DNA of 64,000 nt from positions 6,977 through 70,976 of the forward strand of contig CANQEW010000006.1 in assembly GCA_947596085.1 (NCBI GenBank), written 5' to 3'. Position 1 is the stretch's first letter, and each line of letters begins with the position of its first letter. The translations under genes and the position numbers were made by a program. Under the pieces are notes generated by a model. It searched no databases and had not been told where the DNA came from. It saw only the letters and a program-made list of their open reading frames with translations. Source of the stretch: an uncultured Clostridia bacterium. GTDB taxonomy: Bacteria > Bacillota > Clostridia > Christensenellales > Aristaeellaceae. Below, piece after piece: positions 29,855 to 42,637 of this stretch.

Positions 29855-31042
29855 TCAGTTTACGATCTTGTAGCCCTCCTCGGTGAGCCTGCGCCGAATC
29901 TCGCGAATCTGATCGAAGTCGCGGGTCTCCATGCCCAGGTAGAGGAAGCAGGAGGTGATGGCCATGTTCGCGTCGCTGCGCTCGTGGCGGACGTTGACGA
30001 CGTTCGCGCCGCACTCGGACACGATCTGGCTCACGCCCAGCAGCTGGCCCGGCTTGTCCTCCAGCGCGATCTGCAGCATCGTGTTGCGCCCGGCGGTCAC
30101 CAGGCCGCGCGTGATCACGCGCGAGAGGATGTTGACGTCGATGTTGCCGCCCGAGATGATGCACACCGCTTTCTTGCCTTCGATGGGCAGCTTGCCGAAC
30201 ATCGCCGCCGCCACGCTGACCGCGCCCGCGCCCTCGGCGATGAGCTTCTGCTTCTCGATCAGCGCCAGGATCGCCGCCGCGATTTCGTCCTCGCTGACGG
30301 TCACGACCTCGTCCACGTACTTGCTGACGATCTCGAAGGTCGTATCTCCCGGATGCTTGACCGCGATGCCGTCCGCGAAGGTTCGAACGGTCTCCAGCGT
30401 GATCGGCTCGCCCCGCTTCACGCTCTCCGCCATGCTGGGCGCATTCTCCGCCTGCACGCCGTAGACCTTGACGCTGGGATTGAGGTTCTTGATGGCGTAG
30501 GCCACGCCGGAGATCAATCCGCCGCCGCCCACCGGGCAGATCACCGCGTCCACGTCCGCGAGCTGGTCGAGAATCTCCAAGCCGATGGTGCCCTGACCAG
30601 CGATCACCTCATCGTCGTTGAAGGGATGAATAAAGGTCATCCCCGTCTCCTGCTGAAGCTGGCAGGCGTAGTTGTAGGCGTCGTCGTAGGCGCCCTTCAC
30701 CAGCCGCACCTCCGCGCCCAGCGCCTTGGTGGATTCCACCTTGGAGATCGGCGCGCCGTCCGGCATGCAGACGACGCTGCGAATGCCCATGCGCGACGCC
30801 GCCAGCGCCACGCCCTGGGCGTGGTTGCCTGCCGAGCAGGCCACGATGCCCGCGTCGCGCTGCTCCTGCGTCAGCTGGCTGATCTTGTAGTACGCGCCGC
30901 GCAGCTTGAAGCTGCCGGTGAGCTGAAGATTTTCGGTCTTTAAGTACAGCCCGTTCAGATTCGGGGCGTGGATGAGGTCGGTCTTGCGGGCCACCTGCTT
31001 GAGCACGAAGGCGGCGTGGTAGATTTTGTCGAGCGTGACCAT
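29855..31042 (-). CDS. ilvA: Threonine ammonia-lyase (threonine dehydratase) with a C-terminal ACT-like domain
   Basis: PLP motif SFKLRGAYYK, plus SAGNHAQGVA and GGGGLISG. Confidence 0.9.
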   Translation of the reverse strand: MVTLDKIYHAAFVLKQVARKTDLIHAPNLNGLYLKTENLQLTGSFKLRGAYYKISQLTQEQRDAGIVACSAGNHAQGVALAASRMGIRSVVCMPDGAPISKVESTKALGAEVRLVKGAYDDAYNYACQLQQETGMTFIHPFNDDEVIAGQGTIGLEILDQLADVDAVICPVGGGGLISGVAYAIKNLNPSVKVYGVQAENAPSMAESVKRGEPITLETVRTFADGIAVKHPGDTTFEIVSKYVDEVVTVSEDEIAAAILALIEKQKLIAEGAGAVSVAAAMFGKLPIEGKKAVCIISGGNIDVNILSRVITRGLVTAGRNTMLQIALEDKPGQLLGVSQIVSECGANVVNVRHERSDANMAITSCFLYLGMETRDFDQIREIRRRLTEEGYKIVN

Positions 31043-31048
31043 GATTCG

Positions 31049-31070
31049 TTATTCTCCCTCTCTCTATTTG
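31049..31070. repeat. Left copy of a 22-nt imperfect direct repeat flanking the low-GC islet
   Basis: TTATTCTCCCTCTCTCTATTTG against TTATTCTCTTCCTTTCTGTTTT at 33607-33628: 16 of 22 identical, and the first 8 are identical. Confidence 0.4.
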
Positions 31071-32083
31071 ACTGCAATGTGGTTTGTGAATAGTTCCGGA
31101 TATTTATTTTTCATGTATTCGGAGTATTTTTCCGCTCCCTTTCGATTTAAGTGGGTGGAATCTCCAAAATAGGTATTATCATAAAAACACAGGTCCGTGT
31201 TTACAGTTATTTCCGGGTAATCGCGCTGTATGCCCTTCATATAGTTAGAATAATCCAGCAGATAATTCTCATGACAAGCCTCGTAAGTTGCTTTATTCAT
31301 CGGCAGTGTATCGATAATGACGTTTATTCCTTCGTGAATGCACAACTCAATCATTTTACGAAAATAGTTGTCTAATATATCCGTCGGTTCAAAGTCCGTA
31401 TAGTCTGCCTCCGGGTTCACTGCATCACAGTATTCCAGTTTTCCAAAGCTTGCATAACCTTTGAAAGAACTCAGATTCTGATACATTTCAGCGTTAATTT
31501 TATAGCGATTTTCCCGAACCATTTTGAGAAGCGCTTTGAGGAATGTCTTTCCGTACTTGTTTACGGAATATATTCTGTATAGCAACAATTGCTTATAAAA
31601 GTCCTTTGTGATATGATCTGTATCGTCAAAAGCAGATGCAACCGTATAAATATCTTTCATTTCTGAATCGGACATTCGGTGAAAATATACGCTTCTTGTC
31701 CACAGTGTTTCGGATTCGAAAAAATGAAACGGAGCATAAGAAATAATTACCGTCTGTGGCGCATCATGGTTCCCCAGATATTCTTTAAAATAATAATAGT
31801 TTTCCAGCGGGGACGTTCCACCCAATGAAAAATTGTAAGTATCATCGGACAGAAGCCACGGACAGTATGCGGCTTTTGCCTTGGAATCTCCAATAATAAC
31901 AATGCGGTTGTAATCTGTGCTGTTTTGGACATAGTCCTTTTGCTGCTGATACATTGCGTATTCGCCGTCGAAAAAATACATAGGATATTTTGACATAGCA
32001 ATGGGTACCACTGCGGAAAAAACGATTATGGGCACCATAAATAACGCAAGTTTAAGCGTAAAGTTTTTCAGCGTTCGTTTCAT
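31064..32083 (-). CDS. SGNH/GDSL-like (DltD/AlgX-type) membrane-anchored protein, partner of the MBOAT
   Basis: N-terminal TM helix; IIGDSKAK (block I Ser), SLGG (block II) and GDSTHLN (the D-x-x-H block). GAGGTG RBS. AT-rich codons. Confidence 0.6.
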   Translation of the reverse strand: MKRTLKNFTLKLALFMVPIIVFSAVVPIAMSKYPMYFFDGEYAMYQQQKDYVQNSTDYNRIVIIGDSKAKAAYCPWLLSDDTYNFSLGGTSPLENYYYFKEYLGNHDAPQTVIISYAPFHFFESETLWTRSVYFHRMSDSEMKDIYTVASAFDDTDHITKDFYKQLLLYRIYSVNKYGKTFLKALLKMVRENRYKINAEMYQNLSSFKGYASFGKLEYCDAVNPEADYTDFEPTDILDNYFRKMIELCIHEGINVIIDTLPMNKATYEACHENYLLDYSNYMKGIQRDYPEITVNTDLCFYDNTYFGDSTHLNRKGAEKYSEYMKNKYPELFTNHIAVK

Positions 32084-32097
32084 CCGGTATCACCTCA

Positions 32098-33603
32098 CTA
32101 AAACTGAAAATAAACAAACTCAGAACCCGTTTGAAGCGAGAAGAAAAACACCAAGAATATGGCAAGATAATATAGCGTCCATCTGATCGCGATGGATCGT
32201 TTCGTCACCAGTTCCTGATTGTTCTTTCCCGCATATTGCCTGAGGTCGCAGACGATTTGCAAACAAATAATCAGGCAGACAACAAGAAATGTTTTCGATC
32301 CACCAAAATCGGGCATGCAATTCCGCAAAGCGCTGAGTTGATTTCCAATTCCGTTCCAGATGAATGCTCTTTTATACATGTAAAAAGTTTTTGCGAGACT
32401 GTCTGCACGGAAAGCAATGTTGCCTATGCTTACCAGAATAAATGTCCGCGCGATCTGGAACGCATTCCAGATGATGTTTTCGTCCTGAATGCGAAGCTTA
32501 TGTTTGATTTTAATAAAAGCAGGTTTGAATACCTGTCCTGAAACAATGACAATCCAGAAAAACCAACCCTCGCCGATCATGTATTTCCAGGAACTTCCGT
32601 GCCAGATTCCCATCAGCGTCCAAACCACAAACATGGCGACATAGGTCGGTATTTTTTGCGCAGCTTTTCCCCATTTGTTTTTAAGATTTTTGCTGGCTTT
32701 TTTGAACGCTTTCGTCCACAAAATATGGTACATCACATAGTTCCTCAGCCAGGCGCCGAGGGTTATATGCCATCGTTCCCAGAATTCCTGCACGCTTTTC
32801 GACAGGAATGGAACATTGAAGTTTTCGGGAAGAATGATACCGAAACACTTCGATATGCCGATGATAATATCCATACATCCCGAGAAATCAAAGAACAGTT
32901 GAATCATGAAGATACATGCTGAAATTAAAACCCACGGGCCCGAGAACAGATCCGTATTGTCAAACATTGCGCTCACAATTATTGCGATGTGGTCTGCCAC
33001 AATCACTTTTTTGAGGAGTCCCCATAGCGCGCGGCGCATACCGGACAATACTCTATCGTAATCAAAGCGATGCTCTTCAAAGAGCTGTGTGCCGGTCTGA
33101 GAATACGTGCATATTGGGCCCGAAACCATTTGCGGGAAATACGTGACAAACAGCAATAGTTTAAGCGGATTCTTTTCCGGCTCAAATACTCCTTCATAGC
33201 AGTCGATAAGATAGGAGATAACCTGGAGAGTATAATAACTGATCGCCAGGGGAGCTATCCAATGAACGTCGGCTACGTTCTTCTTTATCCAATAATTGAA
33301 CGTACCAATAAACATATTCGTATATTTGAGGACGGCAAGCAATCCGACATTCAGAACTAGTACAAGCACTAAGGCAAGACGCTTTTTCCGTTTGCTGTCG
33401 GTTTTTTTGAAATACAATGCCGCGCCCCAAACCGTAAACACGCTTACCAGAATATAAATAAACGTATAGGGTTTTGCGGTCACAAAGTAAAAGATCAAGC
33501 TGTCCGCCAAGAGCACAAGCCACTGAACCTTGTGCGGTACGCGCCAGTAGATATATAAACTAATGCCAACAAAGGCAAAATAGATAAATGATGTGATATC
33601 CAA
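32098..33603 (-). CDS. MBOAT-family O-acyltransferase (AlgI/DltB/PatA-like)
   Basis: 501 aa, polytopic. FWERWHITLGAWLRNYV and the WHG region carry the conserved MBOAT His. TTG start at 33603 follows AGGAAGAG. Confidence 0.9.
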   Translation of the reverse strand: MDITSFIYFAFVGISLYIYWRVPHKVQWLVLLADSLIFYFVTAKPYTFIYILVSVFTVWGAALYFKKTDSKRKKRLALVLVLVLNVGLLAVLKYTNMFIGTFNYWIKKNVADVHWIAPLAISYYTLQVISYLIDCYEGVFEPEKNPLKLLLFVTYFPQMVSGPICTYSQTGTQLFEEHRFDYDRVLSGMRRALWGLLKKVIVADHIAIIVSAMFDNTDLFSGPWVLISACIFMIQLFFDFSGCMDIIIGISKCFGIILPENFNVPFLSKSVQEFWERWHITLGAWLRNYVMYHILWTKAFKKASKNLKNKWGKAAQKIPTYVAMFVVWTLMGIWHGSSWKYMIGEGWFFWIVIVSGQVFKPAFIKIKHKLRIQDENIIWNAFQIARTFILVSIGNIAFRADSLAKTFYMYKRAFIWNGIGNQLSALRNCMPDFGGSKTFLVVCLIICLQIVCDLRQYAGKNNQELVTKRSIAIRWTLYYLAIFLVFFFSLQTGSEFVYFQF

Positions 33604-33606
33604 GTA

Positions 33607-33628
33607 TTATTCTCTTCCTTTCTGTTTT
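33607..33628. repeat. Right copy of the 22-nt imperfect direct repeat flanking the islet
   Basis: See the feature at 31049-31070. This copy overlaps the last codons and the stop of the DUF815 gene. Confidence 0.4.
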
Positions 33629-34920
33629 CCCGCGATATAATTGATAAACTGCTGCGCCGTGCGGCCAGATATGCCGCCGTGGCGAATCTCCCAGGTGTTG
33701 GCCGCCGCGATGAGCTTGGCGTCGTCCATCTCGACGCCTTCGCGCTTCGCGATGCCGCGCACGATGTCGTGGTACTGCCGGCGGTCGGGGTTCGAGTAGT
33801 TGATGGCGCAGCCGAAGCGCGCCGCCAGCGACAGCCGCTCCTCCATCGTATCCGAGCGATGCACGTCGCCGTTGAACTCCATATCGTTCCGGTCGTTCCA
33901 CGTCTCGCGAATCAGATGCCGCCGGTTGGACGTGGCGACGATCATCACGTTGTCCGGCCGCGTCTCCACGCCGCCCTCGATCACGGCCTTGAGGAACTTG
34001 TACTCCACTTCGTTCTCCTCAAAGGACAGGTCGTCGATGAAGAGTATAAAGCGGTAGTTGCGGTTTTTGATGCGGGCGATCACGTCCGAGAGCAGATGGA
34101 ACTGATGCTTGTACAGCTCGATCATGCGCAGGCCCCGGGACTGGTATTCGTTCAGCGTGGCCTTTACGGAGGTGGACTTGCCCGTGCCCGCGTCGCCGTA
34201 GAGCAGCATGTTGTTGCAGGGCCGCCCGGAGACGAACGCCTCCACGTTTTCACGCAGCTGCGCCTTCTGCGGCTCGTAACCGATCAGGTCGTCGAGCACC
34301 ACCGCGTCCACGTTGTTGATGGCCAGGAATTCGGCGCCGCCCTTCTTTTCGCGGATGCGGAACGCCCGGTTCAGGCCGAACATGCCCACGCCCCAGTCGC
34401 GGTAGTGGCCGGTGACGAGATCGAAGATCTCCTGCGCGTCCTTCGCCCGCTCAATCGCCGCGCTGAGTTCGCGCACGCGCTCGCTGACGCTGCGATAGTA
34501 GAGCTGCGCGCGCTTGGGAATGGCGCGGTAGTGGGTGAGCACGGTGAAGCAGTCGATGCCGAGGTCGGCCTCGATGGGCGCGAAGTCGAAGTCGAACAGC
34601 TCGCGGAAGATGGCGAAGTCGGCCAGTGCGAAGTGGTTGACAGAGCCGTCGCTGGCGCCCGCGCGTTCGGCGGTGAGGCTGAACGAGTTCTCGTGGGTGA
34701 CGAGCACGAAGGTCAGGTAGTTGTGCCAGAGGTTCGTGTCGAAGCCGTAGAGCGTCGCCACGTCCAGTATGCGCTTGACTTCGGCGTATATCCTGCGCAC
34801 CAGCTCCGGCTTCTCGCACGCGCCGTGCTCCCAGTCGTAGAAGATGTCCGACAGCTTCATCAAAATGCTGTCCGGCTCCAGGCTGCCGTAGAGCAGCAGC
34901 CGCGCGGTTTCGCGGTACAT
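33607..34920 (-). CDS. DUF815-type P-loop ATPase (AAA-like); function unknown
   Basis: Walker A LLYGDAGTGKST, Walker B FILFIDDLSF, then ATSNRRHL. Confidence 0.8.
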   Translation of the reverse strand: MYRETARLLLYGSLEPDSILMKLSDIFYDWEHGACEKPELVRRIYAEVKRILDVATLYGFDTNLWHNYLTFVLVTHENSFSLTAERAGASDGSVNHFALADFAIFRELFDFDFAPIEADLGIDCFTVLTHYRAIPKRAQLYYRSVSERVRELSAAIERAKDAQEIFDLVTGHYRDWGVGMFGLNRAFRIREKKGGAEFLAINNVDAVVLDDLIGYEPQKAQLRENVEAFVSGRPCNNMLLYGDAGTGKSTSVKATLNEYQSRGLRMIELYKHQFHLLSDVIARIKNRNYRFILFIDDLSFEENEVEYKFLKAVIEGGVETRPDNVMIVATSNRRHLIRETWNDRNDMEFNGDVHRSDTMEERLSLAARFGCAINYSNPDRRQYHDIVRGIAKREGVEMDDAKLIAAANTWEIRHGGISGRTAQQFINYIAGKQKGRE

Positions 34921-35757: not shown

Positions 35758-36609
35758 TCATTCCTTAACCAGTTCGCCGACCATCGCCCCGCCGATGATG
35801 CAGAGCGCGCCCACGATTTGAAGCGTCGTCATTTGCTCGCCCAACAGAAGCGCGGCGAATACGACGGCGGACAGCGGCTCGAGGTAGCCGCAGATGGCGA
35901 CCGTCTGCACCGGCAGCTTCGCCAGCGGGGAGAAGTACAGATAGCAGCCGATGCCCGTGTTGACGACGCCGAGGACGAGAATCCATCCCCAGGCCCCGCT
36001 GGGAACGTGGATGACGAACGCCTGCTTCACCCCGACAAAGACCACGACCGTCAGAAAGCTGACCGTCAGCTGGATGACCGAGTTCTCCAGGCCGGTGATC
36101 CCCTCGGACTTGCGGTTGAGCGTCACCATGAAGGCGTACATGATTGCCGACATCGCCCCGCAGAACAAGCCCCAGGCATTGCCCGCGCCCGCCAGCCTTC
36201 CGTTGACGAGCAGGATGCCGATCAGGACGATTGCGAAGCCCGCGATCTTGGGCTTCGTCAGCCGCTTCTGAAACAGCAGCGGCGATAGAATCATCACGAT
36301 GACCGGGCCGCAGTAGTACAACAGCGACGCAAAGCTCACGCCGATCTGCTGATAAGCTTCATAGAGGAACATTCAACTGGTTCCCATGGCGACGCCGGAG
36401 AGTGCGATCAGAAGCGCGTCCCTTCCGTGTCCCTTCAGGTGAAACCTGTTCTTCCCCAACAGAAACAGCGCGATCAGCAGGATGCTGCCGATCATGGTTC
36501 GGAGAAAGACGATCTCATAGCTGCCGAGGGGAATATTGCTTGCGACGATGCCGTTCAATCCAAACAGCAGCAGCGCGCAGAGATATTTTGTAAGGGCTTT
36601 CTTATCCAT
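35758..36609 (-). pseudogene. EamA/DMT-family transporter interrupted by one in-frame TGA (codon 36375-36373)
   Basis: Track ORFs 36373..36642 and 35758..36372 are contiguous in one frame: ...SGVAMGTS-TGA-MFLYEAYQQIGVSFASLLYYCGPVIV.... Together they make a typical 10-TM EamA protein of about 283 aa. Confidence 0.75.
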
Positions 36610-36812: not shown

Positions 36813-37832
36813 TTAGTTGGAGGCGTTGTCCAGATCCTGGTCGTTCTTCCAGAGCATCTGTTCGCGGAGTTGCTTGCCGATGATCTCCATCGGATGCTGG
36901 GCCAGCTGCTCGCGCTTGGAGTTGAAGAAGGTGCGGCCGTTCTTGTTCTCGGCGATCCACTTGCCGGCGAAGGTGCCGTCCTGGATGTCCTTGAGCACCG
37001 CCTTCATGTTGGCCTTGGTCTGCTCGTAGGGCAGGACGCGCGGGCCGGACACATACTCGCCGTACTCGGCGGTGTCGGAGATGGAGTAGTTCATCGCCGC
37101 GATGCCGCCCTTGTTGATCAGATCCACGATCAGCTTCATCTCGTGGATGCACTCGAAGTAGGCGTTCTCGGGGGCGTAGCCCGCCTCGACCAGCGTCTCG
37201 AAGCCGCACTTCATCAGATCGACCACGCCGCCGCAGAGCACGGTCTGCTCGCCGAACAGGTCGGTCTCGGTCTCGTCGTGCATGGTGGTCTCCATGATGC
37301 CGGCGCGCGCGCCGCCGATGCCCGCGATGTAGGCCAGCGCGATGTCCTTGCAGTGGCCGGAGGCGTCCTGCTCCACGGCGATCAGGCAGGGCACGCCCTT
37401 GCCCGCGACGTACTGGGAGCGCACGGTGTGGCCCGGGCCCTTCGGCGCGGCCATGAACACGTCCACATTGGCCGGGGGCACGATCTGCTTGTAACGAATG
37501 TTGAAGCCGTGCGCAAAGGCGATGGCCTTGCCCTCGGTCAGGTAGGGAGCGATGTCCTTCTTGTACATGTCGGCCTGGGCCTCGTCGTTGATGAGGATCA
37601 TGATGATGTCGGCCGCCTGCGCCGCCTCAGGCACGGTCATGACCTGGAAGCCGTCCTTCTCCGCTACGGGCCAGGACTTGCCGCCCTTGCGAAGGCCGAC
37701 GATGACGTCGCAGCCGGAGTCGCGCAGGTTCAGCGCATGGGCGTGGCCCTGGGAGCCGTAACCGATGATCGCGATCTTCTTGCCGGTGAGCTTGTTGAGG
37801 TCGCAGTCCTTCTCATAGTACATTTTTGCCAT
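36813..37832 (-). CDS. ilvC: Ketol-acid reductoisomerase
   Basis: [40 protein letters not shown]. The ATG at 37832 lies 7 nt after GGAGAG. Confidence 0.95.
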
Positions 37833-38364
37833 AGTCAAACTCTCCTTTTTCCTTGGTCTGCTCGTCGATGGTGTATTGTCCCCGCTCCAGTGCCATCATG
37901 CCGGTGCGCACCAATTCGAGGATTCCAAACTCCCGAAGGAGGTTTTGGATCGCTTCCGCCTTGCTTTCGTCTCCAATGACGGCAAGGGTGATGGAGGATA
38001 TGGACACGTCGATGATCGACGCGCGGAAGATGTTCGCAACCTGAATGATCTCATTGCGAACGTCGCTGGTCTGCGCCAGCACCTTGAACAGCACCAGCTC
38101 GCGCCGGATGGAATGCTCGGGCAGCAGGCGCTTGACCGAGTGCACGCAGATCAGCTTGCGCAGTTGGTTGGACAGAAGCCGCGTCTGCTTTTCGTCCGCC
38201 ATCACCTCGATGGTGATGCGGGAAACCTTGACGTCGTCCGTGGTGCCCACGGCCAGCGATTCGATGTTGTAGCCCTTGCCGGAGAAGAGCCGCGCCACGC
38301 GGGAGAGCACGCCCGCCTCGTTGTCCACAAGCACGGCCAGGGTCTGCCTCTTGATCTCGTTCAT
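37813..38364 (-). CDS. ilvN: Acetolactate synthase small (regulatory) subunit
   Basis: ACT domain [32 protein letters not shown]. The 3' end overlaps the ilvC start by 20 nt. Confidence 0.9.
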
Positions 38365-38378
38365 TGCGCGTTCCTCCC

Positions 38379-40085
38379 TCAGTGAATCATAAACTCGGTG
38401 ATGTGGCTGCCGCCACCCACCATCGGGCGAACCATCTCGTCCATATAGACGGCGACGTCGATCACGGAGCCCTTGTCGCTCTCCAGCGCCGCCTTGAGCG
38501 CCGTCTCAAAGTCCTCCACGTTATGGACGCGCCAGCCGTTCAGCCCGTAGGCCTCGGCGAGCTTTACGAAGTCGGGAGCGCGATCCAGCGTGGTCTGGGA
38601 ATAGTGCTGCTTGTAGATCAGCGTCTGCCACTGGCGCACCATGCCCAGCGTTCCGTTGTTGAACAGCACGGTGATGATGGGCAGCTTGTAGTACGACTCC
38701 GTGGCGAGCTCGTTGCAGTTCATGCGGAAGGAGCCGTCGCCGGTGACGTGCAATACAATCTTGTCCGGGTTGCCCGCCTGCGCGCCGATGGCCGCGCCCA
38801 GGCCGAAGCCCATGGTGCCGAAGCCGCCGGAGGTCACGAGCTGGCCGGGATAGTCGAAGTGGAAGTGCTGCGCCGCCCAGATTTGGTGCTGGCCCACGTC
38901 GGTGGTCACGATGGTGTCCTGCGGCAGAATGCGCGCGATGGAGGAGAGCACTTGGCCGGGGGTCAGGCGGTCCGCCACCTGGTCGTAGACGGTCTCGGTC
39001 GGGAAGGAGAACACGTACTTCTTCCACTCGCTGTGGTCGAGCTGCTCAATTCGTTCGAGCAGGAGCTGCAATACGCGCTTCGCATCGCCGATGATGTGGT
39101 GGTCGGTCTGTACGTTCTTGTTGATCTCCGAGCGGTCGATGTCGATCTGCACGATCTTGGCGTTCTGCGCGAAGCTCGAGGGCTTCAGCGCCACGCGGTC
39201 GGAGAAGCGGCAGCCCACGGCGATCAGCAGATCACACGCGTCCACGGCCATGTTGCTGGCCTGGGAGCCGTGCATGCCGATCATGCCGGTGGTCAGCTTG
39301 TTGCGGCCGCGGAAGCCGCCCGCGCCCATCAGCGTGATGGCCACGGGGGCGTCGATCTTGTTGGCGAAGGTTTCAAATTCCCAGTGCGCGCGGCTGCGTA
39401 CCACGCCGCCGCCGCAGATCAGCAGCGGCTTCTTCGCGGCGTTGATCATCTCCACCAGCTTGTCGATGTCCTTGTAGTCTGGCTCGGGGGCCTTGAAATT
39501 CTGCGACGAGCGCTTCATGAGTTCCCCCAGCTTGCCGCTCATGCCGTGGCTGTGGCGGTCGAGGGGTTCATATTCGGCGCTCTCGGCGGTCACGTTCTTC
39601 GGAATGTCCAACAGCACCGGGCCGGGGCGGCCGCTGCGGGCGATGGCGAAGGCCTCGCGCACGGTGTCGGCCAGATCGTCCACGCTGCGCACCAGATAGT
39701 TGCACTTGGTGATGGGCATGGTCACGCCGGTGATGTCCACCTCCTGAAAGGAGTCCTTGCCGATCAGGTCCACGCCCACGTTGCAGGTGATGCACACGAT
39801 GGGGGAGGAGTCCATGTAGGCGGTGGCGATGCCGGTGACCAGGTTGGTCGCGCCGGGGCCGGAGGTGGCGAAGCACACGCCCACCTTGCCCGTGGAGCGG
39901 GCGTAGCCGTCCGCGGCGTGGCACGCGCCCTGTTCGTGGGCGGTCAGAATGTGGCGCACGCGGCCCTCGTAGTTGTAAAGTTCATCGTAGACGTTCAGAA
40001 TCGTGCCGCCCGGGTAGCCGAAGATCGTGTCGACCCCCTGTTCCAAGAGGCACTCCATCAGGATCTTTGCGCCGGTCATTCGCAT
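38379..40085 (-). CDS. ilvB: Acetolactate synthase large subunit
   Basis: MRMTGAKILMECLLEQGVDTIFGYPGG...ATSGPGATNLVTGIA...; the ThDP motif region GGFGTMGFGLGAAIGA...GDGSF. Confidence 0.95.
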   Translation of the reverse strand: MRMTGAKILMECLLEQGVDTIFGYPGGTILNVYDELYNYEGRVRHILTAHEQGACHAADGYARSTGKVGVCFATSGPGATNLVTGIATAYMDSSPIVCITCNVGVDLIGKDSFQEVDITGVTMPITKCNYLVRSVDDLADTVREAFAIARSGRPGPVLLDIPKNVTAESAEYEPLDRHSHGMSGKLGELMKRSSQNFKAPEPDYKDIDKLVEMINAAKKPLLICGGGVVRSRAHWEFETFANKIDAPVAITLMGAGGFRGRNKLTTGMIGMHGSQASNMAVDACDLLIAVGCRFSDRVALKPSSFAQNAKIVQIDIDRSEINKNVQTDHHIIGDAKRVLQLLLERIEQLDHSEWKKYVFSFPTETVYDQVADRLTPGQVLSSIARILPQDTIVTTDVGQHQIWAAQHFHFDYPGQLVTSGGFGTMGFGLGAAIGAQAGNPDKIVLHVTGDGSFRMNCNELATESYYKLPIITVLFNNGTLGMVRQWQTLIYKQHYSQTTLDRAPDFVKLAEAYGLNGWRVHNVEDFETALKAALESDKGSVIDVAVYMDEMVRPMVGGGSHITEFMIH

Positions 40086-40110
40086 GTGTTCATCCTCCTC
40101 CGTCGTTTAA

Positions 40111-40148
40111 GAAAAAGCCTGCCGTCTAAAAGTTAGACTTGCAGGCTT
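40111..40148 (-). terminator. Intrinsic terminator inside the ilvB leader (attenuator)
   Basis: Minus-strand RNA AAGCCUGC-A-AGUCUAA-CUU-UUAGAC-GG-CAGGCUU followed by UUUUC (14 bp). It ends about 25 nt before the ilvB ATG and just before the GGAGGAGG RBS. Confidence 0.75.
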
Positions 40149-40207
40149 CACGAACATCCCTTTGATTTTTCGTTCGAGCCGAACCCGGATTTCTCCGGGC
40201 AGCCGGA

Positions 40208-40330
40208 TCAGCGGACCGGCGATTGCAGGACATAACTTTTAGCATTATCCCCCAGCGTGCTAAGTCGCAGGGGCAGGATAATGCCGACAAGCAGGTCCAG
40301 TACAGCGATACCAATGATCCAAGCGTTCAT
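40208..40330 (-). CDS. Candidate ilvBNC leader peptide (40 aa), below the track's ORF length cutoff
   Basis: ATG 40330 to TGA 40208 encodes MNAWIIGIAVLDLLVGIILPLRLSTLGDNAKSYVLQSPVR, in which 17 of 40 residues are Ile, Leu or Val. GGGAG lies 9 nt upstream. The ORF sits between the promoter and the attenuator terminator. Confidence 0.4.
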   Translation of the reverse strand: MNAWIIGIAVLDLLVGIILPLRLSTLGDNAKSYVLQSPVR

Positions 40331-40361
40331 CGTTTCCAGCTCCCATCGGTTCTGATTTTGC

Positions 40362-40390
40362 ATTATAGCATGGGGGTGTTACGATGTCAA
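40362..40390 (-). promoter_or_regulatory. Consensus sigma-A promoter of the ilvBNC leader
   Basis: Minus strand reads TTGACA-17 nt-TATAAT, a perfect consensus, about 270 nt upstream of ilvB. Confidence 0.65.
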
Positions 40391-40444: not shown

Positions 40445-40473
40445 TTGTCCGCGATGGTGGTTCGTGCTATAAT
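40445..40473 (+). promoter_or_regulatory. Promoter for the aldo/keto reductase gene
   Basis: TTGTCC-17 nt-TATAAT with an extended -10 (TGcTATAAT). Confidence 0.5.
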
Positions 40474-40526: not shown

Positions 40527-41528
40527 ATGAATTACGGACGGATCGACCATGTGGACAGGCCCGTTTCCCGCATCGTGTTCGGAACTGCGACGCCGAAGAT
40601 GTTCGCGGCGTTTCGCTCGGTTTACGAGGACGCGCCGGACTTCTCCCAGCGCCTCGAAGCGGCGTTCGAACTGCTGGACGCGGCCCGTGAGGCGGGCATA
40701 AACTGCTTCGACTGCTCCGATCACTACGGCGAGGAGCCGCTGGGCGAGTGGCTGGAGGCGCGCGGCGTGCGAAACGAAGTGGTGATTCTCACCAAGGGCG
40801 CGCACCACAACCGCTGGCGCAAGCGCGTGACGGATTTTGACATCCTGCACGACGTGCACAACTCGCTGGCGAAGCTCAAGACGGATCACATCGAACTGTA
40901 CCTGCTGCACCGGGACGATCCCGCCGTGCCGGTGGGACCGCTGATGGACGCGCTGAACCGCTGCGTGGACGAGGGCAAGCTGGGCGCGATCGGCGCCTCC
41001 AACTGGACCGTCGAGCGCATGGAGGAGGCCAACGAGTACGCCGCCAAGCACGGCATGCGCGGCTTTACCGTGGCCAGCCCGAACTATGGCCTGGCGGAGC
41101 AGGTGGCCGATCCCTGGGGCGGTGGCTGCGTCAGCATCTCCGGCCCGGAAAACCGGCCGGCGCGGGAATGGTACGCCCGGAACCACATTCCGATATTCGC
41201 CTATTCTTCGATGGCGCGCGGCCTCTTCTCCGGCCGGGTGCGCGGCGGCGAACCGGAGAGCGCGAAGGCCGTCATGGACGAGCCCGGCCTGAAGGGCTAC
41301 GCCTGCCCGGCGAACTTCGAGCGCCTGCGCCGCTGCGAAATTCTTGCGGCGGAGAAGGGCATGACGGTGCCGCAGATCGCCATGGGCTGGCTGTTCAGCC
41401 AACCGCTGGACGTGTACGCGCTGGTTGCCACGGGCCGGCCAGAGAACGTGCGCGCCAACGCCGAAGCGGCGAACGTCCGCTTAAGCGAATCGGAATGCCG
41501 ATGGCTCAATCTGGAGGCCGAACGCTGA
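40527..41528 (+). CDS. Aldo/keto reductase family oxidoreductase
   Basis: FDCSDHYGEEPLGEWL, ILTKGAHH and ELYLLHRDDP carry the AKR catalytic Asp/Tyr/Lys/His context. AGGAGGGA RBS. Confidence 0.9.
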   Translation: MNYGRIDHVDRPVSRIVFGTATPKMFAAFRSVYEDAPDFSQRLEAAFELLDAAREAGINCFDCSDHYGEEPLGEWLEARGVRNEVVILTKGAHHNRWRKRVTDFDILHDVHNSLAKLKTDHIELYLLHRDDPAVPVGPLMDALNRCVDEGKLGAIGASNWTVERMEEANEYAAKHGMRGFTVASPNYGLAEQVADPWGGGCVSISGPENRPAREWYARNHIPIFAYSSMARGLFSGRVRGGEPESAKAVMDEPGLKGYACPANFERLRRCEILAAEKGMTVPQIAMGWLFSQPLDVYALVATGRPENVRANAEAANVRLSESECRWLNLEAER

Positions 41529-42453
41529 ATACAAATTGATGAAAGAACGGCGCTGCCGCGTTCCGCGGCAGCGCCGTTTCTGGTATCGCGTCCCTGCGGT
41601 GCGAGCGCTCGTCCGCGCCGTGCAGCGCGCGATAGCGGCGCGGCGACACTCCCGTCAGCCGGCCGAACACGGTGATGAAGTAGTTGTAGTCGGCATAGCC
41701 GCAGGCCTCGGCCACCTGAGTGATATTGAGCTCCGGCCGGGTGAGCAGCAGCTGCTTGGCGTAGTCGATGCGCTTCTTTCGGATGTGTCCGGCGATGCCC
41801 ATGCCGTAGTTCTGGTTGGAAAATTCGTACAGCGCCGTGCGCCCGATGTGAAAGCGCTTGCAGATGTCGCCCGCGTTGATGTCCTCGGTGAAGTGCTGGG
41901 AGATGTACTCGTCGATCTGCACCTGCAGCGGCTGCTGTTTGAGCGTCACCATGCGGTCGAAGTAGAGATAGGAGGCCACCGCGTCGAGAATGTGCGACGC
42001 GGAGAGGATGTATCCCTCCTCCATGTCCGGCAGGCCGTCGATCAGCGCGCCCAGCTTTGCCTCGTCGAGGCCGTAGCGGCGGCAGGCGTTCAGAATCGCG
42101 CGGCGCCCCATTTCCCGCTCGGGATAGCAGAACAGGTGGCCGAAGGCGGCGTAGGCCACGATGATGTTGCCCATGAACACCGGCGAGACGGCCTCCGTCA
42201 GCCCCGCGTGGCAGCGGTAGACATAGGGCGCGCGCATCGCCAGCGCCCGGCGGCAGGCTTCCCGGTCGCAGCGATGGCACTCCGCCTCGGCCTCGGAATT
42301 TTCGCGAATGAAGCGGCAGATCGGCGCGATGCGCTCGGGGTAGGAGGCGATCTCCTTGAGCGAATCGTCGAACACGGTGATGCGGACTTGCGTGAGGTTG
42401 TAGAAGTCCCGCAGCAGGGCGTTCAGCTTGACAAAATCAAAGGATGAATACAT
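41506..42453 (-). CDS. AraC-family transcriptional regulator with an N-terminal PocR-type sensor domain
   Basis: N-terminus FYNLTQVRITVFDD...CRFIRE...CHRCDREA...YRCHAGL (PocR-like). C-terminal double HTH GRTALYEFS...ITQVAEACGYADYNYFITVFGRLTGVSPRRYR. GAGGTG RBS before the ATG at 42453. The 3' tail overlaps the AKR gene by 23 nt. Confidence 0.85.
   Translation of the reverse strand: MYSSFDFVKLNALLRDFYNLTQVRITVFDDSLKEIASYPERIAPICRFIRENSEAEAECHRCDREACRRALAMRAPYVYRCHAGLTEAVSPVFMGNIIVAYAAFGHLFCYPEREMGRRAILNACRRYGLDEAKLGALIDGLPDMEEGYILSASHILDAVASYLYFDRMVTLKQQPLQVQIDEYISQHFTEDINAGDICKRFHIGRTALYEFSNQNYGMGIAGHIRKKRIDYAKQLLLTRPELNITQVAEACGYADYNYFITVFGRLTGVSPRRYRALHGADERSHRRDAIPETALPRNAAAPFFHQFVFSVRPPD
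41546..41578. terminator. Strong bidirectional terminator hairpin lying inside the 3' tail of the AraC ORF
   Basis: AACGGCGCTGCCGCG-ttc-CGCGGCAGCGCCGTT, a perfect 15-bp stem with A-rich and T-rich flanks. Confidence 0.7.
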
Positions 42454-42472
42454 TGCGCGCCACCTCGCTTCC

Positions 42473-42501
42473 ATTATAATATGACACTGAAGAATTGTCC
42501 A
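42473..42501 (-). promoter_or_regulatory. Sigma-A-type promoter for the AraC/PocR regulator gene
   Basis: Minus strand reads TGGACA-17 nt-TATAAT. Confidence 0.55.
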
Positions 42502-42637
42502 GAAAAAGCGGACGGAATCCAAGAAATATGAACGCACGCATATATCTTCCCCCGAAAATGTTTGTTAAGATATGATTATAAGGAAAACCGGAAAGGATCC
42601 GGAGAGATATTCATCATTCAGCGAGGAGGAAAACACG

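Follow-up and report, generated by a model that had tools for sequence, protein, structure and literature searches.

A putative ribosome-mediated attenuator family upstream of ilvBNC in rumen and gut Clostridia

Introduction

The operons ilvGMEDA and ilvBN of Escherichia coli and Salmonella are controlled by leader-peptide attenuators (ilvL and ivbL, respectively; cited in PMC5794164). For the ilv genes of gut and rumen Clostridia, the regulators usually invoked are T-boxes, CodY or ppGpp riboswitches. Leader peptides in place of T-boxes were noted in Firmicutes in 2010 (PMC2965389). Ribosome-mediated attenuation by a leucine-rich ilvD leader peptide has experimental support in Staphylococcus aureus (PMC5794164), as does the branched-chain amino acid (BCAA) attenuator Rli60 of Listeria, which has a 13-aa peptide (PMC5864092). 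Attenuators have also been predicted in Lactococcus (the leu-ilv leader) and Streptococcus, as cited in those two papers (PMC5794164, PMC5864092). For Corynebacterium, leader-peptide attenuation of ilvBNC is known (PMC10272879, PMC11857589), and the Corynebacterium ilvB-II uORF, the ilvB-OMG motif and the Leptospira ilvB motifs have been read as attenuators (PMC10272879, PMC11109978, PMC8632094).

Here we describe the leader of ilvBNC in a 64-kb stretch of Clostridia DNA, referred to as the window, and its relatives in other genomes. Like ilvL and ivbL, this leader combines a short ORF dense in Ile, Leu and Val (I/L/V) with candidate 1:2, 2:3 and 3:4 hairpins and a terminator before the first BCAA gene. 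Unlike them, it is carried by Clostridia and has an antiterminator that would nucleate on the terminator loop, and Rfam, Pfam and NCBIfam reveal no sequence relation between them. With the attenuators of Bacilli it shares a predicted ribosome-mediated control of ilv/leu genes in a Gram-positive host and a locus that is free of a T-box. Those attenuators lie ahead of ilvD or leuA operons and their peptides are shorter, whereas the present family precedes ilvBNC, encodes peptides of 29-46 aa, has no sequence relation to them and is known from sequence alone.

The conserved uORF rich in BCAA codons and the terminator 5' of ilvB also recall the ilvB-II, ilvB-OMG and Leptospira ilvB motifs, but these belong to other lineages, have other sequences and are set apart by motif strings and by Rfam; the string GCURAAAGU is absent from the supplementary alignments of PMC10272879. 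The T-box (RF00230) acts at the same gene and position with the same terminator/antiterminator output. However, it senses tRNA charging directly, which would here be sensed via the ribosome, and the leader is devoid of Stem I, a specifier loop and the T-box sequence.

The initial annotation of this DNA regarded peptide-mediated BCAA control as unusual for the clade. For Firmicutes in general this is overstated because of the precedents in S. aureus, Listeria, Lactococcus and Streptococcus, where such leader peptides have been shown or predicted in Bacilli. The part that stands is narrower: a predicted leader family of Clostridia that alternates with T-boxes at orthologous ilvB genes is new. 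The mechanism would be of a known kind, and the family itself appears to be undescribed. Our literature search found no description of this Clostridia leader family, a result that is not conclusive given the many subscription journals outside its coverage.

Results and Discussion

Architecture of the ilvBNC leader

All attenuator features of the ilvBNC leader are on the minus strand, and their layout reads as that of a classical 1:2 / 2:3 / 3:4 attenuator. From the promoter to the end of the operon they are as follows.

40362..40390, minus strand: sigma-70-type promoter TTGACA-17-TGcTATAAT, match 12/12
40340..40344, minus strand: Shine-Dalgarno (SD) sequence GGGAG of the leader ORF, 9 nt 5' of the ATG
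40208..40330, minus strand: leader ORF, 40 codons plus stop, I/L/V-rich in codons 5-26
40276..40285, minus strand: segment 1, the 5' arm of P1, GGCAUUAUCC, codons G16-I17-I18-L19 (MFE fold)
40251..40275, minus strand: apical hairpin of P1, with CGACUUA at codons R22-L23
40221..40250, minus strand: segment 2, the P1 3' arm GGAUAAUGCU and then GCUAAAAGUUA...UGCA, predicted partner of segment 1 or segment 3
40151..40207, minus strand: variable spacer with local hairpins, conserved neither in sequence nor in length
40124..40150, minus strand: segment 3, the terminator 5' arm and loop (duplex prediction and covariation)
40109..40148, minus strand: intrinsic terminator, a bulged 14-bp hairpin plus UUUUUCUU (MFE fold and RNAalifold)
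36813..40101, minus strand: regulated genes with the ilvB ribosome-binding site; Pfam confirms ilvB, ilvN and ilvC
40101-40094, minus strand: ilvB ribosome-binding site GGAGGAGG
40085-38379, minus strand: ilvB, with its ATG at 40085
38364-37813, minus strand: ilvN
about 37838-36813, minus strand: ilvC

The promoter is made up of TTGACA (40390-40385), a 17-nt spacer and TATAAT (40367-40362), with a TG extension at 40370-40369. No second 12/12 match occurs in the 64-kb window, and none was found in 100 shuffles. In relatives, an extended -10 element resembling TGCTATAAT is found again 5' of the leader ORF. Transcription of the leader probably starts near 40355. The leader of 277 nt has a fold that is more stable than that of its shuffles (z = -3.4).

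The terminator consists of AAGCCUGCAAGUCUAA-CUU-UUAGACGGCAGGCUU followed by UUUCUU and is present in the MFE fold; a simple terminator scanner missed the hairpin only because of the bulge. It lies between the leader ORF and ilvB, with its U-tract 25 nt 5' of the gene, and a promoter scan of the interval between terminator and ilvB returned no promoter-like site. The initial annotation had listed a perfect TTGACA-17-TATAAT upstream of ilvB, a 40-codon I/L/V-rich ORF with GGGAG, and a 14-bp hairpin with a U-tract before ilvB; all three hold up at the places given. Comparative data show that these elements do not occur together by chance.

The leader ORF and its peptide

The leader ORF terminates with TGA at 40210-40208 and encodes MNAWIIGIAVLDLLVGIILPLRLSTLGDNAKSYVLQSPVR, a peptide with 17 I/L/V among its 40 residues (5 I, 8 L, 4 V). 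A 51-aa version with an in-frame ATG at 40363 was rejected: this start lies inside the -10 box and is therefore expected to be absent from the transcript.

Comparison of related leaders shows that the ORF is under coding constraint. In an alignment of 31 leaders (A1), where the coding frame was taken as the one containing GCU-RAA-AGU, this frame runs without a stop through 20 or more codons in 31/31 and begins with an ATG preceded by an SD-like purine motif in 29/31. Of the two remaining frames, one is open in 5/31 and the other in 3/31, and neither has an ATG with SD in any leader. Gap runs are divisible by three in 91 of 92 cases within the ORF, versus 41 of 89 in the spacer after the stop. 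In about 40 related leaders the reading frame persists together with its SD and ATG, indels leave it intact and the I/L/V run stays dense, which answers positively the question of small-ORF conservation raised in the initial annotation.

The leader thus holds an ORF with SD and start that could be translated, and it is enriched in codons for the operon's own amino acids, with I/L/V making up on average 35% of leader peptides versus 22% of IlvB. The best 12-residue stretch has 7-11 I/L/V residues in every one of 34 peptides (9 in the window), and a random 40-mer with the composition of IlvB would have at least 8 in a 12-residue stretch with a probability of ~0.015.

Attenuators typically use rare regulatory codons. 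In the window's clade, ATT accounts for 68% of the Ile codons in the leader versus 6% in ilvB, GTA (Val) for 39% versus 5% and CGA (Arg) for 61% versus 2%, and in other clades CTA (Leu) accounts for 46% versus 1%, a usage that is partly confounded by RNA-structure constraint on the same nucleotides.

Among the family peptides, which have 29-46 aa (for example MHFAYALNSIIIVSIILVLVVKNAKNSAKSYALSCKAMEF and MAFACANIIVAILSAILILIVRVVRENEDSAESCALICKAEEHPAV), only the I/L/V run and the residues whose codons build conserved RNA helices are kept, and the rest varies freely. The conserved nucleotides AAUAAUGCUAAAUGUUAUG stand in a different frame in the Evtepia clade, and the peptide still has NILAVSIIGVLLVVVV. 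Since segment 2 there keeps its nucleotides in a shifted frame, the conservation of the C-terminal 'NSAKS' elsewhere is at the RNA level. At the peptide level, the requirement is the I/L/V run. Six of eight peptides were present in a protein collection by exact look-up, none with an informative name, and gene callers had predicted the ORF in several assemblies. A profile search of five family peptides against Pfam and NCBIfam at E<=10 gave no relevant match, ilv/ivb/leu leader peptides included.

Alternative pairings of the leader RNA

In the MFE fold of the window, P1 pairs 40285-40276 with 40250-40241. The consensus of this helix is AGCAUUAUUCU (codons S/G-I-I-L) paired with AGAAUAGUGCU, and many leaders have in addition an outer helix, P0, formed by GCAUAAUU with AGUUAUGC. 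The 5' strand of this putative anti-antiterminator (1:2) overlaps the regulatory codons, and its apical string CGACUUA is nearly invariant within the window's own clade. Among the 31 leaders, P1 is 89% paired with double changes at 7 of 11 pairs, and the terminator is 90% paired with double changes in 8 of 13 pairs. Jointly, P0, P1 and the terminator are 86.7% paired, versus 35-42% when the partners are slid, and 19 of their pairs have changes on both sides; 0 of 500 shuffles attain the observed values. The terminator is the RNAalifold consensus, with 9 covarying pairs. Run on a MAFFT alignment, RNAalifold returned the terminator alone, neither P0/P1 nor the antiterminator; the pairs of the latter two were specified explicitly and then counted.

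Segment 2 could instead pair with segment 3. Its part GCUAAAAGUUA (40243-40233) has its complement in the loop and inner stem of the terminator, and in the window 40242-40233 would pair with UAACUUUUAG (40135-40126) and 40227-40224 with UGCA (40143-40140), in a 2:3 duplex predicted at -16.2 kcal/mol. An alternative structure sequestering the terminator 5' arm, which the initial annotation had proposed to look for, was found in this covarying pairing of segment 2 with the loop and inner stem. Across the family, the consensus GCURAAAGU(U/C)(A/G), right after the P1 3' arm, complements (U)AACUUUYAG in the loop and inner 3' stem of the terminator, and this core helix is 98% paired in A1. Compensatory changes in 39 leaders comprise A-U to G-C (22 vs 16 sequences), U-A to C-G (L048 and L049) and A-U to U.G (5 Evtepia-clade loci), and only two single mismatches occur in the 8-bp core; the covariation is limited to 3-4 columns because most positions are invariant. 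In RNAduplex predictions the helix continues, by way of GCC:GG and UUGCA:UGCAA (CUGCA:UGCAG for the window's clade), until it takes in the entire 5' arm of the terminator. The parts of the leader exist and are conserved, the ORF is coding-constrained, and all three pairings covary.

A '5'-arm mimic', in which CCUGCAA after segment 2 would pair with the terminator 3' arm, was considered and rejected, as it cannot nest with the helix between segment 2 and the loop. The likeness of CCUGCAA to the 5' arm is due to (C)UGCA(G), a near-palindrome that pairs with this arm and lengthens the antiterminator.

The antiterminator (2:3) would be exclusive of the terminator (3:4), in part through shared bases and in part through geometry. 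In L066 and the Evtepia clade, segment 2 finds its target almost exclusively in the loop of the terminator. The loop helix has 9-11 bp and is separated by 0-2 nt from the 3' arm; therefore, by geometric reasoning, both helices cannot fully coexist. The predicted energies of the two states are comparable, at -12 to -26 kcal/mol for the 2:3 duplexes and -15 to -30 kcal/mol for the terminators. In full-length equilibrium folds the terminator wins in 23-24 of the 31 leaders, as would be expected of a kinetically controlled switch. When a ribosome footprint was masked over segment 1, the number of leaders with the antiterminator in their nascent-RNA folds rose from 5/31 to 16/31; the antiterminator is absent from the footprint-masked MFE in 15/31. 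The window's P1 overlaps the 2:3 core by just 1-2 nt, which leaves the competition to weaker P0-like pairs. Here the antiterminator is present in the nascent-RNA MFE even when there is no ribosome, and discrimination must therefore be kinetic or via a ribosome covering segment 2.

Distribution of the family and alternation with T-boxes

A search with IlvB, taking one genome per species, yielded 80 loci and, with the window, 81 ilvB upstream regions. All 80 loci are from metagenome-assembled genomes of Clostridia from rumen and gut, and their IlvB is 69-88% identical to that of the window. The hosts include Christensenellales- and Oscillospirales-type organisms, Acutalibacteraceae and Evtepia. 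Based on motif and nhmmer searches, the same leader is present in about 40 of the 81 upstream regions, corresponding to about 40 species-level genomes; owing to the shared ancestry of the sequences, such counts are not independent events. The element occurs exactly once in the window. A metagenome scan by DNA pattern, for which ilvB was not required, gave 8 stretches, only 3 of them true members, and the 2 members with sufficient context were both directly upstream of ilvB. Every copy of known context is located immediately 5' of ilvB.

The initial annotation had not recognised a T-box here, and Rfam agrees. Rfam 15 had no match at gathering score in the whole window, and the leader searched at E<=10 matched only SAM-III and MEG8, with the T-box and ppGpp riboswitch models unmatched. 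Both are chance matches; that of SAM-III is on the other strand and scores 14 bits against a gathering score of 45. Seven family members gave nothing at E<=1. In contrast to the leader, 8 of 20 related loci without it carry an RF00230 T-box (95-102 bits) just 5' of the orthologous ilvB (L016, L017, L019, L021, L024, L031, L032 and L034), a positive control showing that the model performs well in these organisms.

This patchwork of T-boxes and leader peptides at ilvB in Oscillospirales/Christensenellales could reflect recent, repeated sensor replacement. Because close relatives have a T-box at the same gene, the locus would be a natural example of two tRNA-charging sensors interchanged. Leader-peptide attenuators gain a well-supported family, with covariation in three alternative helices, and the element would be suitable as an Rfam family. 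In genome annotation, the small ORF should not be called a hypothetical protein. The leader also offers a handle on the BCAA regulation of uncultured gut anaerobes.

Proposed mechanism and alternative readings

We consider it very probable, from the comparison of sequences and predicted folds, that the leader is a ribosome-mediated BCAA transcription attenuator of ilvBNC. Peptide-mediated attenuation was also the reading of the initial annotation, which had named covariance models and ORF conservation as computational grounds on which it might fall; the results on both support it. It would sense how much charged tRNA is available for Ile, Leu and Val. The strong promoter would fire and the 40-codon ORF would be translated during synthesis of the leader, the ORF region folding into a long hairpin with the I/L/V codons in its 5' arm (segment 1) and GCUAAAAGUUA in its 3' arm (segment 2). 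When BCAAs are abundant, the ribosome would pass segment 2 and reach the stop codon, or the hairpin would re-form behind it, and segment 2 would be unavailable. The terminator 3:4 would then form and transcription would stop before ilvB. When BCAAs are scarce, the ribosome would stall on the rare I/L/V codons in segment 1 and release segment 2, which would capture segment 3 before segment 4 is made, and the polymerase would enter ilvBNC. Translation of the ORF, ribosome stalling and BCAA-dependent read-through are steps that we infer.

The main rival to a ribosome-mediated attenuator is a structured RNA switch whose reader would be a protein, a tRNA or a small molecule (such as ppGpp or a BCAA), in which the ORF would be tolerated and would not be the sensor. 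Such a switch could explain the nucleotide-level conservation, extending to wobble positions, of segment 2, both arms of P1 and the terminator loop, and why the apical CGACUUAU is nearly invariant in the window's clade while the stem shifts register, like a recognition loop. The CUU-A in the apical string is reminiscent of a T-box specifier, and both ppGpp riboswitches and T-boxes are known 5' of ilvB in Firmicutes (PMC10272879). However, the coding constraint disfavours this reading, as an untranslated switch has no need of a conserved frame, SD and ATG or of frame-preserving indels. Moreover, the apical region is wholly different between clades and always encodes I/L/V, no conserved multi-helix junction or aptamer-type pocket was seen, and Rfam recognised neither the leader (E<=10) nor the seven family members (E<=1). 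We regard a switch read by another factor as unlikely. It is also highly improbable that segment 2 and the terminator loop pair in a pseudoknot that belongs to the OFF state and helps to stabilise or position the terminator. L066 and the Evtepia clade, where the target is almost entirely loop and not stem, would suit a pseudoknot, but the 9-11 bp loop helix with its 0-2 nt link makes full coexistence geometrically impossible. In most leaders the pairing also reaches the inner stem and the outer 5' arm (GCC:GG, UUGCA:UGCAA), and segment 2 has segment 1 as a further partner, which is the classical competition.

A different possibility is that the ORF is a gene in its own right, with a terminator of its own, whose product is a small hydrophobic membrane peptide; read-through into ilvBNC would then be incidental or constitutive. 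The hydrophobic core is transmembrane-like, and the prediction of the ORF by gene callers in several assemblies is what such a gene would give. Yet the I/L/V run alone is kept, the C-terminal part is frame-shifted in the Evtepia clade, and no Pfam or NCBIfam family was matched. The ORF invariably adjoins the 5' end of ilvB with no promoter between them, and a covarying pairing between coding region and terminator would be superfluous for a stand-alone gene. We give an independent peptide gene almost no credence.

The ribosome-mediated attenuator might carry a second layer, for example a site of programmed pausing or arrest, or a loop for a trans-acting factor, and, as a separate matter, T-box and leader sensors might have replaced each other repeatedly at ilvB; to this extended picture we assign a low probability. 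The apical CGACUUAU encodes Arg-Leu-Ile in very rare codons and, with the capture of the terminator loop, is a possible mark of such a second layer.

A T-box and a probable leader-peptide sensor upstream of orthologous ilvB genes

Upstream of ilvB in eight related Clostridia (loci L016, L017, L019, L021, L024, L031, L032 and L034) we identified a canonical T-box, scoring 95-102 bits. In these loci the T-box lies ~90-330 nt upstream of ilvB, the place that the leader-peptide element (the I/L/V-rich small ORF and terminator) occupies in the window. Thus, the two sensors alternate at orthologous ilvB, and do so within the same orders.

Variants of the leader in relatives

The leaders of the Evtepia / Ruminiclostridium MAG clade (L059, L064, L067, L070 and L075; at ~2700-2990) place the conserved nucleotides of segment 2, the strand that pairs either within hairpin P1 or with the terminator 5' arm and loop, in another reading frame of the leader ORF. 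Their larger terminator loop holds the antiterminator target, and the antiterminator pairing is preserved by a double change from A-U to U.G. Locus L073 (~2780-2960) is a weak member of the leader family, in which a P1-like region and a terminator are present. No complement to segment 2 is evident in the L073 terminator loop, and this leader may have degenerated or been rewired.

Within the window's clade, the string CGA(C/A/G)U(U/C)A, which spans Arg-Leu/Ile codons and includes the very rare codon CGA, is nearly invariant, and the apical stem around it shifts register. The window has CGACUUA at 40261-40267, and loci L001-L012 carry this string too. The string is absent from other clades. Its conservation could reflect rare-codon pausing or a recognition loop.

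Genes flanking the leader

Upstream of the leader, the following features were identified:

40445-40473, plus strand: divergent promoter-like site TTGTCC-17-TATAAT with TG, 5' of the aldo/keto reductase gene
40527-41528, plus strand: aldo/keto reductase gene
41506-42537, minus strand: PocR/AraC-type regulator, next after the aldo/keto reductase gene

A weak SAM-III-like match near the divergent promoter-like site (14 bits, against a gathering score of 45) was dismissed as chance.

Downstream of the leader, a mechanical ORF listing gives ilvC a TTG start and a 26-nt overlap with ilvN (37813-37838). Translation of ilvC probably begins instead at one of the ATGs that lie a few codons further downstream ([11 protein letters not shown]...). 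Just 3' of ilvC, an EamA-family transporter occupies two minus-strand ORFs (36642-36373 and 36372-35758), divided by an in-frame TGA at 36373-36375 (minus strand; '...GTS*MFLYEAY'). The split points to a pseudogene or else to a sequencing error; our guess is that the TGA stands in for a Trp codon.

Positions 30001-34000 of the window have a G+C content of 0.47-0.52, compared with ~0.62 elsewhere, and may have been horizontally acquired. This stretch includes:

31064-32083: ORF with no Pfam match
32098-33603: MBOAT acyltransferase
33607-34920: DUF815/AAA ATPase gene, partly inside the stretch
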